Assembly (NCBI GenBank): GCA_045563025.1
Contig: JBJKUS010000005.1
Coordinates: 34,718-98,717, forward strand
Length of the DNA: 64,000 nt
Origin: Alphaproteobacteria bacterium
GTDB taxonomy: Bacteria; Pseudomonadota; Alphaproteobacteria; Methylaequorales; Methylaequoraceae
Direction of reading: 5' to 3'
The notes below the pieces were generated by a model, which was not told where the DNA came from, made no database searches, and was given only the letters and a program-made list of their open reading frames with translations. The position numbers were made by a program, and so were the translations under genes. Below are positions 24,924 to 29,263 of the stretch, one piece after another (positions within the stretch are counted from its first letter, which is position 1; every line of letters begins with the position of its first letter).

Positions 24924-25715
24924 GTGATACACTTCATAGTTGCTACAACCTCTGAGGCAAGACCGTTAATCGACTTTTTTAAACTAAAAAAAAAAAATTC
25001 TATTTCTAATTTTGTTTTTTTTGATAATGATGAAATCTCTCTTACTATTAGTGGAATTGGAAAAATAAACGCAGCAATGAGCGTCACGCACACCTATTAT
25101 GAATTTAACAAAATTAAAAATAATGTTTGGGTAAACTTTGGGATTGCAGGACATATTAGTCATAGTATAGGAAAAATTTTTCTTATAAATAAAATAGTTG
25201 ATAAAGAAACTAATTATAAATATTTTCCTCACATAATCAAAAACTGCAAATTAGACCAAAAAAGCTGTATAACTTACAGTGAACAAAATTTTTTTTATAA
25301 TGATGATTTATCAGATATGGAAGCTAGTGGTTTTTTTATGGCTGCAGACAAATATTCAACTAAGGAACTGATTCATTCAATAAAAATTATTTCTGACAAT
25401 AAAGAAGAAAAAATTGATTTTTCTGATAAAAAAAAATTATATGACATAATTAAACCTAATGAAAAAATGATAACTTCATACATAGAAAATATATATAAAA
25501 TTTGGAAGAAGTTTTACTTCTACAAAAAAACAATTGATGAAAAAGTAAAAAAAGTTCTTCAAAATAAAAATCTTTCATTTTATCAAAAAAAAGAATTTGC
25601 AAAAGTTTTAGAATATTACTTTCTAAATAGTGAAAAAAATTCATCTAAAACATTAGATTTTTCAAATAATTTTGCTGAAAAAATAAAATTAATTAAACGA
25701 AATCTGAAAATATGA
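24924..25715 (+). CDS. nucleoside phosphorylase/nucleosidase family 1 protein (MTA/SAH-nucleosidase-like) with a C-terminal extension
   Basis: 263 aa. The N-terminal 150 aa align to the Pfs/MTAN fold: IVATTSEARPLI (cf. IGIIGAMEEE), LTISGIGKINAAMSV (cf. KSGIGKVAAA), VNFGIAGHI (cf. NTGSAGGL), SDMEASGFFMAA (cf. VEMEATAIAHV). Confidence 0.65.
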   Translation: MIHFIVATTSEARPLIDFFKLKKKNSISNFVFFDNDEISLTISGIGKINAAMSVTHTYYEFNKIKNNVWVNFGIAGHISHSIGKIFLINKIVDKETNYKYFPHIIKNCKLDQKSCITYSEQNFFYNDDLSDMEASGFFMAADKYSTKELIHSIKIISDNKEEKIDFSDKKKLYDIIKPNEKMITSYIENIYKIWKKFYFYKKTIDEKVKKVLQNKNLSFYQKKEFAKVLEYYFLNSEKNSSKTLDFSNNFAEKIKLIKRNLKI

Positions 25716-26680
25716 AATTTGAAAATATATATATAGAGGATGAAATTAAAAGTTTGAAAAAAACAAAAAGTATTTTGAGTAGAATTAAATATAAAAATAT
25801 AATTTTTTGCGACAAATACACTGAAATATTTAATCCAAAAAATCAAAACTTTCGAATCCAAAAAATAAATCCAAATATAATTTTAGCAAAAAAATATGGA
25901 AAGTTTATTTTAAAAACACCCCCAAAATTTAATATTGGATTCAAATACAACTATTATTTTTCACATATGCTTAATTGTGTTTATGATTGTAAATATTGTT
26001 TTTTACAAGGAATGTTTAATTCAGCTAATTTTTTAGTTTTTGTTAATTATGAGGATTTTTTTAAGGAGATTGACTGTATTTTAACAAAAAATCCAAATAA
26101 GAAAATTTGTTTCTTCTCCGGTTATGATTGTGATAGTTTGGCCTTGGAGAAAATAACGAATTTTCTTAATTCTTTTTTAACTTTTTTTGAGCAAAGAAAA
26201 AACGCATTCTTAGAAGTCAGAACCAAAAGTACTAATATAGAAGTTTTCAAAAAAATTAAACCAATTAATAATGTAATCATTGCATATAGTTTGAATCCAG
26301 AAGAAATTATTCAAAAGTATGAGCAAAAAACTCCAACTTTTGCAAAAAGACTTGAAAGTTTGCACTTATTACAGAGTCTAGGTTGGAGGGTTGGTATTAG
26401 ATTTGATCCAATTTTTGTTTCACATAATAATGTTAATATTTACAATCGCTTCGTAGAAAATATTTTTTTAAAGATAAATCCAAATACCTTGCATTCAGTA
26501 ACAATTGGTGAATTTAGAATGCCGAATAATTTTCTTAACAAGATACTCAAGATTAGAACTAATGACTCACTTGAATTTTTAGAGTTGCATAATAACAAAT
26601 TAAAGAAAAAAGAGAGTTATAGTTTATTTAAGAAAAAATTAAGAACCTTTGTAAGTGCAAGAAAAATTTATGAAAATTAA
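25712..26680 (+). CDS. spore photoproduct lyase-family radical SAM protein (SplB-like DNA repair lyase)
   Basis: 322 aa. The CxxxCxxC cluster sits in the SPL context NCVYDCKYCFLQ (cf. SplB C..HC.YCYLQ). The ATGA overlap with the upstream nucleosidase gene indicates coupling. Confidence 0.75.
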   Translation: MKFENIYIEDEIKSLKKTKSILSRIKYKNIIFCDKYTEIFNPKNQNFRIQKINPNIILAKKYGKFILKTPPKFNIGFKYNYYFSHMLNCVYDCKYCFLQGMFNSANFLVFVNYEDFFKEIDCILTKNPNKKICFFSGYDCDSLALEKITNFLNSFLTFFEQRKNAFLEVRTKSTNIEVFKKIKPINNVIIAYSLNPEEIIQKYEQKTPTFAKRLESLHLLQSLGWRVGIRFDPIFVSHNNVNIYNRFVENIFLKINPNTLHSVTIGEFRMPNNFLNKILKIRTNDSLEFLELHNNKLKKKESYSLFKKKLRTFVSARKIYEN

Positions 26681-27057
26681 AACTTCTTTTGTTTTACCTC
26701 AAACTTTTTACAGTTAAATGTTAAAGAGGTAATTTTTCCATCATCATGTTTCTCAAAATTTAATACGAGCTGTCCACTATATCTTCCAATAATACCTGAA
26801 ACATCACCATTGGAATCAGGATACAAAGGTATATCTTTTGCAGTCCACGAAATATTTGAATCAGTATTTTTGAATCTATCAGCAAAAAAACTTAATCCAC
26901 CTATGTCAATTTTTTTTTTATCTGTATCAATTATTAAGAAAACATCTTTTACATCAAGACTTCGTACATCTATATAATTATTTGTACATATTAGATTTAG
27001 TTCATTTGAAAAAGAAATTTTGGGAAGAAAAAGAAGAAATAATAACAGCCTGATCAT
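26677..27057 (-). CDS. secreted hypothetical protein
   Basis: 126 aa with a signal peptide (MIRLLLFLLFLPKISFS) and two Cys; no known motif. Its stop overlaps the SPL stop, in convergent orientation. Confidence 0.4.
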   Translation of the reverse strand: MIRLLLFLLFLPKISFSNELNLICTNNYIDVRSLDVKDVFLIIDTDKKKIDIGGLSFFADRFKNTDSNISWTAKDIPLYPDSNGDVSGIIGRYSGQLVLNFEKHDDGKITSLTFNCKKFEVKQKKF

Positions 27058-27216
27058 AATTTGATAATTTCAAAAAAAAAGAAAATGTCAATTTTATTTT
27101 TATATAATTGTTATAAAGTTATTAACAAAATATAAACTTTTAATTTGAAAAAATTTTCATAAAAAGTTTTTAACTGATAATAATTTTTTTTTTTGTTAAC
27201 ATAACTTAATAAGTGT

Positions 27217-27951
27217 ATGTGGAAAAAGAAAGTTTACATAAGTGATTCCGCTCAGCCATTCAGATTAAATAGAACAAAAATTGATTTATTTTTTGATTGC
27301 GAACGTTGTTTTGTCCTTGATCAAAAATTTGGTATAAAAAGACCTTTTGGGACTCCTTTGGTAATGAATAATAAAATAGTAAATACGCTTAAGGATGAAT
27401 TAGAGATTTGCAGAGAAAAAAAACAAATTCATCCTCAAGTTTTGGAGAATAATCTGAATTATATTCCCAATAACTTTGAGCTTCTGAATGATTGGAAAAA
27501 TCCATTTAAGGGTGTAAAATATACTCACAAGAAAACTAATTTTTTACTTAATGGGACTATTGATGATGTTTGGATAAATAAAACTACAAAAAAAAACTAC
27601 TGTTTAATTATTAAAAGTACTTCAAAAAAAGAACAACTGTCATATGAGCAAATATGGTCTGGATATTGGAGGCAATTATCTTTTTATACATATCTTCTGG
27701 AAAAAAACTCAATTGAAATGTCAAAAACTGGAATTCTTGTATTTATAAAAACTTTTGACAATTCTGAAAAATTCTCCAAAAGTTTATCATTTAATTTAAG
27801 TATCTTTGAAAAAATATTAGATCTTGATTGGATTGAACCAACACTGTTAAACATACATAAGATTTTAAATAGTAACGAAATTCCAAAAAATTCAAACTAT
27901 TGTAAATATTGCAAATATTATTTTAACATTAAAAACAAAATTAATGAATAA
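27217..27951 (+). CDS. putative PD-(D/E)XK-type nuclease, Cas4/RecB-like, with four Cys (possible Fe-S or Zn site)
   Basis: 244 aa. A CERC pair lies at residues 28-31 and CKYC at 229-232. A QxxxY motif (RQLSFY) follows a candidate active-site Asp (GTIDDVW). The gene is coupled to the ligase by an 8 nt overlap. Confidence 0.45.
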   Translation: MWKKKVYISDSAQPFRLNRTKIDLFFDCERCFVLDQKFGIKRPFGTPLVMNNKIVNTLKDELEICREKKQIHPQVLENNLNYIPNNFELLNDWKNPFKGVKYTHKKTNFLLNGTIDDVWINKTTKKNYCLIIKSTSKKEQLSYEQIWSGYWRQLSFYTYLLEKNSIEMSKTGILVFIKTFDNSEKFSKSLSFNLSIFEKILDLDWIEPTLLNIHKILNSNEIPKNSNYCKYCKYYFNIKNKINE

Positions 27952-29263
27952 TGCAGAGATTATAAAACTTATTGAATCATCGAATTCAAGACTTTTTAAA
28001 GAAAATATAATTCTTGAGCAAATGAAATTGCAAAATAATATACTTTTCTCTGGTTTGTCATTAGCTTACAACAAACTACTGACCTTTGGTGTTAAGCAGC
28101 TTCCAATCTCTGATAATGATGGCACTGGAATAAATTGGTTAGAATTTAAGGAATTATGTGACCAATTAATTAAAAGAAAGCTGACCGGTCATGCTGCACG
28201 AGATAGAATCATTGAATTAAAAGATAAATCTGGGAAAGATGAATGGAATTTTTTTTATAAAAGAATTTTGCAAAAGGATATGAGATGTGGACTTTCGGAA
28301 AAAACGATTAATAATGTTGCAAAAAAAAATAATTTTGAAAATTACACAATTCCTGTTTTTTCATGTCAATTAGCGCAGGATTGTGAACTTCACAAAAAAA
28401 AGTTAAGCGGAAGAAAAATCTTAGAAGTAAAACTTGACGGAGTCAGGGCAATAACTGTTGTATACCCTAATGGTAAAATTGATATTTTCAGTAGAAATGG
28501 TAAAGAATTAAATAATTTCGACCATCTTAAAAATGAAATTAATAGATTACTAGACATAAATCTAGTTTCAAAACCTATTATTTTTGATGGTGAAATCGTG
28601 AGTGAAGACTTCCAATCATTAATGAAACAGATCCATAGAAAGAATTCATTGCAAAACAAAGATGCAAAACTTTTTATTTTTGATTTTTTACCACTTGAGG
28701 ATTTTAAAAATGGAATTTACAAAAAAACTTTTGAAGATAGAAAAAATCTTTTAAAAAAATTTTACGAAAAGTTATTTTCAGAAAGTAAACTTATCAGACT
28801 TATGGATTCATTAAGTGTAGATCTTGATACTGAAAATGGGAAAGATGAATTTAAAAAATTTAATAGTGAATCTATCATAAATGGCTATGAGGGTATAATG
28901 ATCAAAGACCCAAGCTCTTTTTATGAATGTAAAAGATCTACAACTTGGTTAAAATCAAAACCATTTATAGAAGTTTCACTAGAAGTAAAAGACTATGAAG
29001 AAGGTACCGGAAGAAATCAAGGTAAATTAGGAGCTATCATTGCTGAAGGAACTGATAACAATAAATATTTCAAAACTAATGTAGGGTCAGGTTTTTCTGA
29101 TATTCAAAGAGAAAACTTTTGGATAAAAAGAGATGAACTTATCGGGCAAATAATAGAAATTCGCGCAGACTCTGTAAGTAAGGCTCAAGACGGAAAATAT
29201 TGGAGTTTGAGATTCCCTCGTTTTAAAACGTTTAGGGGTTTTGAAAAAAAAGAAAAATTATAG
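27944..29263 (+). CDS. ATP-dependent DNA ligase
   Basis: 439 aa with nucleotidyltransferase motifs I (EVKLDGVRA), III (FDGEIV), IV (EGIMIKD) and V (WLKSKP), plus an OB-fold C-terminus. No signal peptide is present. Confidence 0.85.
   Translation: MNNAEIIKLIESSNSRLFKENIILEQMKLQNNILFSGLSLAYNKLLTFGVKQLPISDNDGTGINWLEFKELCDQLIKRKLTGHAARDRIIELKDKSGKDEWNFFYKRILQKDMRCGLSEKTINNVAKKNNFENYTIPVFSCQLAQDCELHKKKLSGRKILEVKLDGVRAITVVYPNGKIDIFSRNGKELNNFDHLKNEINRLLDINLVSKPIIFDGEIVSEDFQSLMKQIHRKNSLQNKDAKLFIFDFLPLEDFKNGIYKKTFEDRKNLLKKFYEKLFSESKLIRLMDSLSVDLDTENGKDEFKKFNSESIINGYEGIMIKDPSSFYECKRSTTWLKSKPFIEVSLEVKDYEEGTGRNQGKLGAIIAEGTDNNKYFKTNVGSGFSDIQRENFWIKRDELIGQIIEIRADSVSKAQDGKYWSLRFPRFKTFRGFEKKEKL

Follow-up and report, generated by a model that had tools for sequence, protein, structure and literature searches.

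A Cas4-like nuclease-fold gene overlapping an ATP-dependent DNA ligase gene in streamlined marine Alphaproteobacteria: a candidate two-gene repair unit

Closest Described Systems

[quoted passage not shown] 2017, PMC5704561). They are PD-(D/E)XK proteins that carry four conserved cysteines in the arrangement C...Cx2Cx5C, occur in small-genome environmental bacteria without CRISPR, and have catalytic motifs that are reported to be conserved; the paper that describes them makes no use of the word “ligase” (PMC5704561).

The closest described ATP-dependent ligase is Pmar-Lig from Prochlorococcus marinus (PDB 6RAR, 6RAS, 6RAU, 6RCE), a nick-sealing enzyme that was captured on nicked DNA (PMC6698739). 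Its DNA-binding domain is a seven-helix bundle (PMC7470946). Neither the structure paper nor a review of these ligases describes a partner or an operon for it, and for the Pmar-Lig branch of the bacterial ATP-dependent ligases neither a biological role nor partners have been described (PMC6698739, PMC7470946); “Cas4” has 0 occurrences in the review. Accessory ligases in operons include those of the LigD-Ku end-joining system (NHEJ), the LigC-PrimPolC base-excision repair system and the LigB operon, in which the ligase gene lies beside that of an end- or lesion-processing enzyme (PMC7470946). A literature search for a nuclease-ligase pair in Pelagibacter or SAR11 found nothing relevant.

Nucleases that act on 5′ flaps or 5′ ends and hand a nick to a ligase include Dna2 or FEN1 with Lig1, MGME1 in mitochondria, and Exo5. 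The cysteines of Dna2 and Exo5 are arranged 1+3, and MGME1 is not known to carry a metal cluster.

The locus described here shares features with each of these systems. Its two genes lie on the + strand of the window, by which we mean the whole 64-kb stretch of DNA that was analyzed. ORF1 (27217..27951) encodes a 244-aa solo Cas4-family, RecB-like PD-(D/E)XK-fold protein, and ORF2 (27944..29263) encodes a 439-aa ATP-dependent DNA ligase of the Pmar-Lig/T4-like three-domain type. ORF1 resembles solo Cas4 in standing alone, in its four conserved cysteines and in belonging to streamlined environmental hosts that lack CRISPR. Its family has many members in Patescibacteria (CPR), which PMC5704561 also notes for solo Cas4. 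However, its cysteines follow a 2+2 pattern, CxxC...CxxC, and the marine clade to which it belongs lacks the acidic residue of motif III. Its sequence identity to the 5′-end nucleases named above is only 11–14%. ORF2 is colinear with Pmar-Lig over its full length, with ~50% identity to genomic orthologues, and the two share a small helical DNA-binding domain, adenylation and OB domains, and all nucleotidyltransferase motifs. They differ in host phylum, and the Prochlorococcus gene has no Cas4-like partner. As in the accessory-ligase operons, a ligase here adjoins a presumed end-processing enzyme, but the pair has no Ku, polymerase, primase or phosphoesterase, and ORF2 comes from the T4/phage-like branch.

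Identity of the Two Genes

Both genes are real and lie just where the sequence-only reading had placed them. The analysis establishes their identity and motifs, the predicted fold of ORF1, purifying selection on both, and an adjacency with overlap that extends across the clade. Comparison with a 93%-identical relative gives dN/dS values of 0.11 (ORF1) and 0.067 (ORF2), which indicates purifying selection on each.

ORF1 matches the Pfam family PF01930 (Cas_Cas4) at 27.0 bits, above the cutoff of 22.7, and PDDEXK_1 at 18.9 bits, just below the cutoff of 22. The NCBIfam equivalog TIGR00372 (cas4) scores 23.7 bits, under its cutoff of 65, and several PADLOC Cas4 models match weakly (E 7e-7 to 3e-4). 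A phmmer search of ORF1 against solved structures gave no direct sequence match, and the profile of its family reaches SSO0001 only, at E 0.08, so a fold comparison was required. The predicted fold (AF2 model) resembles the nucleases of the Cas4, RecB, Dna2, MGME1 and lambda-exonuclease type, which places ORF1 within the RecB-like PD-(D/E)XK fold expected of the Cas4 family. ORF1 is a single-domain protein without a helicase domain, and no UvrD-type helicase, as would mark an AddAB, RecBCD or AdnAB system, is fused to it or encoded among its neighbors. No cas domains were found in the neighboring genes, cas1 and cas2 are not adjacent, and the window contains no CRISPR-like repeat array. We read ORF1 as a stand-alone, Cas4-type protein (RecB-like PD-(D/E)XK) with an unusual metal-binding cysteine pattern.

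ORF2, as far as its sequence can tell, is a genuine ATP-dependent DNA ligase of a well-known type. Residues 4-438 match 6RAU, 6RAS, 6RAR and 6RCE by phmmer at E 3.3e-134, and align end to end with residues 9-441 of 6rau_I. The alpha-helical domain for DNA binding at the N-terminus (residues ~1-140; 27944..28363) has no Pfam match and is assigned from its colinearity with that of Pmar-Lig. It is followed by the adenylation (nucleotidyltransferase) domain (residues 143-339; 28370..28960; PF01068, DNA_ligase_A_M, 88 bits), which holds motif I with K163 (28430-28432), and by the OB-fold domain with motif VI (residues 353-431; 29000..29236; PF14743, DNA_ligase_OB_2, 43 bits). The sequence-only reading, which was made without database searches, had recognized a bona fide ligase from motifs I, III, IV and V. 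The analysis located these as K163 LDGVR (I), FDGE 214 (III), EGIMIK 316 (IV) and WLKSK 335 (V), and added IIIa (FIFD) and VI (RFPRF 423). ORF2 thus has the full set of nucleotidyltransferase motifs, motif VI and the colinear N-terminal domain of the Pmar-Lig/T4-like type. ORF2 also matches phrog_114 at E 1e-88. By analogy with Pmar-Lig, it would seal nicks. Ku, LigD polymerase and LigD phosphoesterase domains are absent from ORF2 and from the neighboring genes, and the NCBIfam LigD models fall far below their cutoffs, in agreement with the earlier view that this is not the classical NHEJ arrangement.

Overlap, Gene Order and Distribution

The ORF1 stop codon (TAA, 27949-27951) lies beyond the ORF2 start codon (ATG at 27944), and the two genes share the 8 nt ATGAATAA (27944..27951, + strand), just as had been read from the sequence. 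The further claim that this overlap signals translational coupling is weakened, because 25 of the 46 same-strand neighbors in the window (54%) overlap, and in six cases the shared stretch is exactly 8 nt. Overlap is the norm in this window, which is ~94% coding with ~28% GC, and so does not by itself mark coupled genes. The sequence upstream shows no purine run of the Shine-Dalgarno type.

Close to the pair, non-coding sequence of any length is confined to the 159-bp intergenic region upstream of it (27058..27216), a candidate promoter site with no assigned strand. Promoter-like hexamers occur on both strands of this region, and one block of it is conserved in six loci. The promoter of the pair probably lies here, shared with a divergent small gene. 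No terminator-like site occurs between 26600 and 29900.

Adjacency of ORF1 and ORF2 with a stop/start overlap is found in every locus of the marine alphaproteobacterial clade that was examined. The overlap is 14 nt at loci L001-L007 and L081/L082, 8 nt in the window and at loci L099-L104 and L105/L106, and 4 nt at locus L083. Only 0.9-kb contigs represent the divergent lineage P0426, and in these, too, the ligase N-terminus begins 8 nt ahead of the stop of the nuclease gene. Synteny of the pair holds in relatives with nuclease identity down to ~43%. The sequence-only reading had allowed for two outcomes that would undo it, namely that the 244-aa protein might match no PD-(D/E)XK profile and that the pair might be syntenic in no relative, as a chance adjacency would be. 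Neither holds, since PD-(D/E)XK/Cas4 matches were found (PF01930 at 27 bits and the PADLOC Cas4 models) and the pair is syntenic in relatives.

This synteny extends well beyond the pair. About 10 surrounding genes are equally syntenic in the clade, including unrelated methyltransferase-like, Gly-zipper lipoprotein and MMPL genes, and the conserved adjacency must therefore be counted as one inherited event rather than as repeated evidence. In all clade loci, a radical-SAM gene of the SPL family lies two genes upstream of the pair. A 5′-deoxyadenosine/MTA-nucleosidase-like gene adjoins this SPL-like gene in the block, and the two look functionally matched.

Outside the clade, the two genes are found apart. 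No ATP-dependent ligase occurs in the flanks of the nuclease family at any of 72 non-alphaproteobacterial genome loci, ~36 of which have full 6-kb flanks on both sides, nor at any of 12 loci on IMG/VR viral contigs, where the nuclease is of the non-marine type. The Prochlorococcus ligase orthologues follow a gene for a 139-aa protein, are divergent from a SprT-like gene, and have no Cas4-like nuclease upstream. The 139-aa protein was considered as a cryptic relative of the nuclease and rejected (BLASTP E 0.64; nothing significant in Pfam). Nor did a look for nuclease-ligase fusions of the Rosetta-stone kind find any: among the top 150 family representatives, the ten with the greatest length carry DUF2779, TIR+GYF, HD_4 or NUDIX domains and never a ligase. 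The co-occurrence that had been suggested for checking in other genomes thus holds among clade relatives and is absent beyond this one lineage, with no independent origin of the pairing in the loci examined. In Patescibacteria and other phyla, the nuclease family often lies beside UDG (11 loci), XseA (8 loci) or a protein with an Ogt DNA-binding domain (7 loci), and these neighbors point to a repair role for the family.

A Proposed Repair Unit

We propose that the two genes form a probably co-transcribed DNA-repair unit that is specific to this clade of streamlined marine Alphaproteobacteria, a reading to which we give a probability of roughly one half. The ~28% GC, the ~94% coding density and matches to marine single-cell genomes suggest that the clade is SAR11-like. 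Co-transcription, the substrate, and a pathway common to both proteins are inferred. A shared repair role of ORF1 and ORF2 is plausible, and it is graded no higher because the pairing is confined to one lineage. By analogy with Cas4, Dna2, MGME1 and Exo5, ORF1 would most likely act where DNA is damaged or gapped, threading and trimming 5′ flaps or single-stranded 5′ ends, with a Cys4 metal center (2+2 ligands) that would tie its N- and C-terminal helices together. Such trimming would leave a ligatable nick, and ORF2, as a ligase of the Pmar-Lig type, would encircle the nicked duplex and seal it. The clade-wide overlapping pair offers a testable hypothesis for both proteins: trimming of 5′ ends or flaps, followed by sealing. 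Of the earlier description as a compact repair or recombination module, the clade-wide adjacency and the repair-type neighbors speak in favor, while the separation of the partners outside the clade and the commonness of overlaps speak against.

Alternatively, the genes may owe their proximity to descent alone. In that case, a solo Cas4-like nuclease with a housekeeping role in repair and an accessory ligase that seals nicks would have been juxtaposed in the clade ancestor and would have lost their spacer through streamlining, while serving separate processes. This explanation, which we take to be a real if lesser possibility, would reduce the pair to two ordinary accessory repair genes. It fits the separation of the partners in every lineage examined outside the clade, the lack of fusions among the longer family representatives, the 54% of same-strand window neighbors that overlap, and the functionally unrelated genes in the syntenic block. 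It is harder to reconcile with the persistence of adjacency and overlap to ~43% nuclease identity. Moreover, if neighbors were functionally random, 4 kb would be unlikely to hold an SPL-family gene together with genes for a DNA ligase and a nuclease-fold protein. The order of genes in the block also appears to carry some functional information, because the nucleosidase-like gene adjoins the radical-SAM SPL-like gene, giving a second pair that looks functionally matched.

Cysteine Pairs and Active Site of the Nuclease-Fold Protein

ORF1 has two CxxC motifs, CERC near the N-terminus (residues 28-31, C28 and C31; 27298..27309, + strand) and CKYC at the C-terminus (residues 229-232, C229 and C232; 27901..27912, + strand), both noted in the sequence-only reading. 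Each is invariant in 78/78 homologues, and they form the two halves of a putative Cys4 metal site. Two such motifs arise by chance in 105 of 20,000 composition-preserving shuffles of ORF1. The context of C28 (CPRC/CERC) is like that of the canonical N-terminal cysteine of Cas4, and C31 may be an additional ligand. The third canonical C-terminal cysteine of Cx2Cx5C is missing in ORF1; it is present in 3/39 non-marine homologues and in 0/39 members of the marine clade. The likeness to the Fe-S “staple” of Cas4 and AddB that was first drawn thus stands with respect to four invariant cysteines and fails with respect to their arrangement, which is 2+2 (C28-x2-C31, C229-x2-C232) and not the 1+3 of Cas4 and AddB. 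The sequence is compatible with either Fe-S or Zn at this site.

In motif II (D116-D117; 27562..27567, + strand), D116 aligns with the catalytic D99 of Cas4 SSO0001, in line with the candidate catalytic Asp proposed at the outset, and D116 and D117 are each kept in at least 38 of the 39 members of both the marine and the non-marine group. The Cas4 QhxxY motif is present as Q153-L-S-F-Y157 (27673..27687, + strand), the QLSFY already picked out from the sequence, which aligns with QLQIY of SSO0001; Q153 occurs in 77/78 and Y157 in 78/78 homologues. Motif III is degenerate. I131-I132-K133 (27607..27615, + strand) stands opposite E113-I-K115 of SSO0001 in the profile alignment, so that the (D/E)xK of Cas4 keeps its lysine and has isoleucine in place of the acid, which the earlier reader had also failed to find. 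The wider family has D-Y-K here. At position 131, the non-marine homologues have D (39/39), and those of the marine clade have I, V, S or L (37/39); the loss of the acid is specific to this clade. Mutation of the equivalent Glu in another Cas4 is reported to curtail DNase activity (PMC8610317).

It is conceivable, though distinctly unlikely, that ORF1 in this clade is a catalytically dead pseudo-nuclease, kept to recruit or regulate the ligase, either as a subunit that recognizes DNA ends, flaps or nicks or as a sensor of damage that bears a metal cluster. The lost acid is D or E in 144/147 family representatives and is lost in 0/39 homologues outside the clade, and its loss coincides with the sole lineage that links the nuclease gene to a ligase, while the gene stays under purifying selection. 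Other acids of the family are replaced too (D55 to V, E155 to S), but D55, K151 and E155 may have formed an inter-helix salt bridge that was exchanged for hydrophobic contacts. One divergent ligase-linked member of the clade has Y157 replaced by L, carries N61 and Q63, and has no E198. Against a non-catalytic scaffold, D116, D117, K133, Q153 and Y157 are each found in at least 38/39 members of a clade whose mean pairwise identity is 53%, a near-invariance that would be unexpected. In addition, E198 is a clade-specific Glu that is nearly mutually exclusive with D131, a pattern consistent with relocation of the acid. Among PD-(D/E)XK enzymes, relocated acids are known from Cfr10I and NgoMIV, for example. 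Because these five residues are nearly invariant and E198 arises where D131 is lost, we think that the active site has been rewired and that catalysis is kept in a modified form rather than abolished. The pair offers a natural experiment on how a PD-(D/E)XK active site copes with loss of the motif III acid.

A more elaborate version of the repair unit can be imagined, although we consider it doubtful. In this version, a Cas4-derived protein with a re-ligated staple (2+2 cysteines) and a relocated or lost active-site acid would have evolved into a dedicated partner, coupled in translation, for an ATP-dependent ligase of the phage type. The two would form a minimal two-protein system that makes sealed DNA out of damaged ends or 5′ flaps. 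Its hosts would be a bacterial lineage that ranks among the most abundant at the ocean surface, and it may belong to a light- or UV-damage repair cluster that includes the SPL-like radical-SAM gene.

A phage or mobile-element origin of the pair was rejected: tblastn against 50,697 phage records finds no match to the nuclease, its match among the PHROGs is weak and to an unknown one, and the family members on the 12 viral contigs have no ligase. A role in defense was rejected as well, because the PADLOC matches of the nuclease are limited to weak Cas4 models, the ligase has none, and no CRISPR array is present. The GC content and dN/dS of the pair are similar to those of neighboring genes, and there is no sign of recent acquisition. 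The matched relatives include marine single-cell genomes labeled Alphaproteobacteria or Rickettsiales, and the ligase is highly abundant in marine metagenomes, where it forms, as a lower bound, more than 7,900 distinct clusters at 90% identity.

A Cas4-like nuclease gene overlapping a DNA ligase gene

The nuclease gene (27217-27951, plus strand) encodes 244 amino acids and the ligase gene (27944-29263, plus strand) encodes 439. Both ORFs lie where the sequence-only reading had placed them, with an 8-nt overlap, ATGAATAA, between the nuclease TAA (27949-27951) and the ligase ATG (27944). The nuclease features listed in that reading are all there (C28-E-R-C31, C229-K-Y-C232, Q153-LSF-Y157 and D116-D117), as are ligase motifs I (K163LDGVR), III, IV and V; motifs IIIa and VI were likewise located. 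Compared to a 93%-identical relative, both genes are under purifying selection, with dN/dS of 0.11 for the nuclease and 0.067 for the ligase, which resembles the values for neighboring genes. The window has a GC content of ~28% and is ~94% coding.

We give about even odds (roughly 0.5) to the pair being a lineage-specific repair unit, in which the Cas4-like protein would trim 5′ ends or flaps to leave a nick and the ligase would close it. Fold, motifs, selection and synteny across the clade are shown; that the genes are co-transcribed and that their products cooperate on such a substrate we infer. Dna2, FEN1 and MGME1 act together with a ligase, and the proposed trim-then-seal analogy to them draws on the fold matches. 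The pair does not correspond to the better known arrangements. As the sequence-only reading had noted, Ku and LigD domains are absent, so this is not classical NHEJ. The pair lacks a helicase, unlike AddAB-type enzymes, and it is not CRISPR-linked; no CRISPR-like repeats were found within the window. A literature search found no paper describing this pair. It offers a testable handle on two very abundant marine proteins of unassigned role.

Identity of the two proteins

Along its full length the ligase is closely homologous (E 3e-134) to Pmar-Lig, an ATP-dependent ligase from Prochlorococcus marinus (PDB 6RAU, 6RAS, 6RAR, 6RCE), and so joins a type that has been characterized structurally. Its closest viral relatives are phage ligases, at ~31-37% identity, and it matches phrog_114. 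Pmar-Lig, which has been crystallized on nicked DNA, combines a minimal seven-helix DNA-binding domain with adenylation and OB domains and has been likened to T4 ligase (PMC6698739, PMC7470946). No genomic partner of Pmar-Lig is given in the structure paper (PMC6698739) or in a ligase review (PMC7470946).

Profile matches of the 244-aa protein to the PD-(D/E)XK and Cas4 families are mixed. Pfam Cas_Cas4 scores 27 bits against a gathering score of 22.7. PDDEXK_1 (18.9 bits) falls slightly under its cutoff of 22, the NCBIfam cas4 equivalog (23.7 bits) far under its cutoff of 65, and PADLOC returns weak Cas4 matches only. An AF2 model from an alignment of 78 sequences has high confidence (pLDDT 90.2, pTM 0.88). 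In the family profile alignment to Cas4 SSO0001, D116 corresponds to D99 of motif II, residues 131-133 to E113-I-K115 of motif III, and Q153/Y157 to the QxxxY motif. Where motif III should have its acid, the window protein has Ile, which bears out the doubt raised earlier about this residue.

The four cysteines proposed to form a Cas4/AddB-like Fe-S staple are present and invariant among 78 homologues, and shuffling the protein 20,000 times gives two CxxC motifs in just 105 cases. However, their layout is CxxC...CxxC (2+2), compared to the canonical C...Cx2Cx5C (1+3) of Cas4, AddB and Dna2. The canonical third C-terminal cysteine is still kept by only 3/39 distant, non-marine members, and C31 has probably taken its place as fourth ligand of a putative Fe-S or Zn site. 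Two defining features of Cas4 are missing from the marine protein, namely the acid of motif III and the 1+3 arrangement of cysteines, and it is therefore termed Cas4-like. It belongs to the uncharacterized assemblage of solo-Cas4 proteins described from bacteria with small genomes (PMC5704561).

Synteny of the nuclease and ligase genes

In every marine-clade locus that could be examined, the nuclease gene is followed directly by the ligase gene with a stop/start overlap, of 14 nt in L001-L007 and L081/L082, 8 nt in the window, L099-L104 and L105/L106, and 4 nt in L083; L031, from a nanopore MAG, is frameshifted. This adjacency persists to ~43% nuclease identity. The co-occurrence suggested from the window thus holds in these marine-clade loci but not outside the clade: tblastn, phmmer and a KxDGxR motif scan found no ATP-dependent ligase in the flanks of the nuclease family at 72 non-alphaproteobacterial genome loci or at 12 IMG/VR loci. 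Nor were nuclease-ligase fusions found among the longer family representatives, whose partners are DUF2779, TIR, HD or NUDIX domains.

The marine-clade loci share a block of ~10 genes, in the order Cys/Met PLP enzyme, NDUS4, an unknown gene, methyltransferase-like, nucleosidase-like, SPL-like radical SAM, small divergent ORF, nuclease, ligase, Gly-zipper lipoprotein and MMPL. That the pair is adjacent in all of them therefore counts as one inherited event, and support for a true module comes from a single lineage. In addition, gene packing in the window is extreme: 25 of 46 same-strand neighboring ORF pairs overlap, 12 by 4 nt, six by exactly 8 nt and the others by 1 to 25 nt. Stop/start overlap in this genome should therefore not be taken as a sign of functional coupling. 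That the two genes are neighbors by descent with independent functions is a serious, if somewhat less probable, explanation. It accommodates the single event and the ligase-free loci elsewhere, while gene order in the block does carry some functional signal, because the nucleosidase-like gene matches the radical-SAM gene (see below).

Two Prochlorococcus loci (L085 5944-8314, L086 5949-8332) carry the Pmar-Lig orthologue behind an unrelated 139-aa protein and divergent from a SprT-like metalloprotease gene. The 139-aa protein has an N-terminal hydrophobic segment and sub-threshold Pfam matches only, the best being MecA_N, an NTF2-like domain (E 0.007). In these loci the ligase may serve in another repair setting.

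Active-site changes in the marine clade

The nuclease family is large (>591 genome loci; 386 representatives of 50%-identity clusters at E ≤ 1e-30 and 1,546 at E ≤ 1e-10). Its hosts are mainly Patescibacteria and Saccharibacteria, with some Gammaproteobacteria and Woeseiaceae and a set of marine Alphaproteobacteria represented by single-cell genomes and MAGs. The 78 aligned sequences were divided into marine alphaproteobacterial members (group A, n=39) and the remainder (group B, n=39). The motif III acid position is D or E in 144/147 family representatives, and D131-Y-K133 is invariant in group B, whereas position 131 is I, V, S or L in 37/39 group A sequences. Further group A substitutions are D55V, K151W and E155S.

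Despite a mean pairwise identity of 53%, D116, D117, K133, Q153 and Y157 are each kept in at least 38/39 group A members. Moreover, position 198 is Pro in group B and Glu in 34/39 group A sequences, almost exactly those without D131. Because of this retention and the tracking of D131 loss by E198, the residue pattern is more in keeping with an active site that has been rewired and is still under selection than with a dead one. A pseudo-nuclease that helps the ligase recognize DNA would explain the missing acid, but is improbable given the residues kept. In P0426, a more divergent marine member, Y157 and E198 are gone as well, so some members of the clade may have an inactivated nuclease.

P0477 (L107, 317-1315) is a marine variant of 332 aa that resembles the nuclease over its first ~180 residues, where T replaces the motif III acid; the C-terminal half bears no relation to the family, and the second CxxC is missing. 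The adjacent gene, on the opposite strand, is DUF3299 and not a ligase. Lying on a 2-kb contig, P0477 may be a decayed copy or a fusion, or else a chimera produced in assembly.

Neighboring genes and repair context

In Patescibacteria, Saccharibacteria, Gammaproteobacteria and Woeseiaceae (L008-L080), the nuclease family adjoins a UDG-superfamily glycosylase (11 loci), XseA (8 loci), an Ogt protein consisting of the DNA-binding domain only (7 loci) or an ATP-cone plus Mrr_cat protein (18 loci). These neighbors favor a repair role for the family. The family form at these loci appears, from its residues, to be the catalytically intact type. MnmA is often nearby, which may be plain synteny.

Two genes upstream of the nuclease, the marine clade has a radical-SAM gene of the SPL family (25712-26680, plus strand). 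It matches PF20903 at 62 bits and TIGR04070 at 85 bits, far under the 400-bit cutoff, and its host here is a streamlined marine bacterium that does not sporulate. The gene before it, which overlaps it by 4 nt, resembles 5′-methylthioadenosine/5′-deoxyadenosine or futalosine nucleosidases (24924-25715, plus strand), and both are syntenic in all marine-clade loci. Clearance of a radical-SAM by-product by the nucleosidase-like enzyme is plausible, making the two a sensible pairing.

A 126-aa ORF (26677-27057, minus strand) lies between the SPL-like and nuclease genes. Between this ORF and the nuclease gene, the intergenic block GATAATTTCAAAAAAAAAGAAAATGTCAATTTTAT (about 27060-27095) is kept in six loci, although protein identity among them falls as low as 44%. 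Read on the minus strand, the block has TTGACA, a 16-nt spacer and an extended -10 (TG before AATTAT), the last ending 7 nt ahead of that ORF's ATG. This arrangement suggests that the transcript has little or no leader, or that the divergent nuclease-ligase genes share a regulatory site here.
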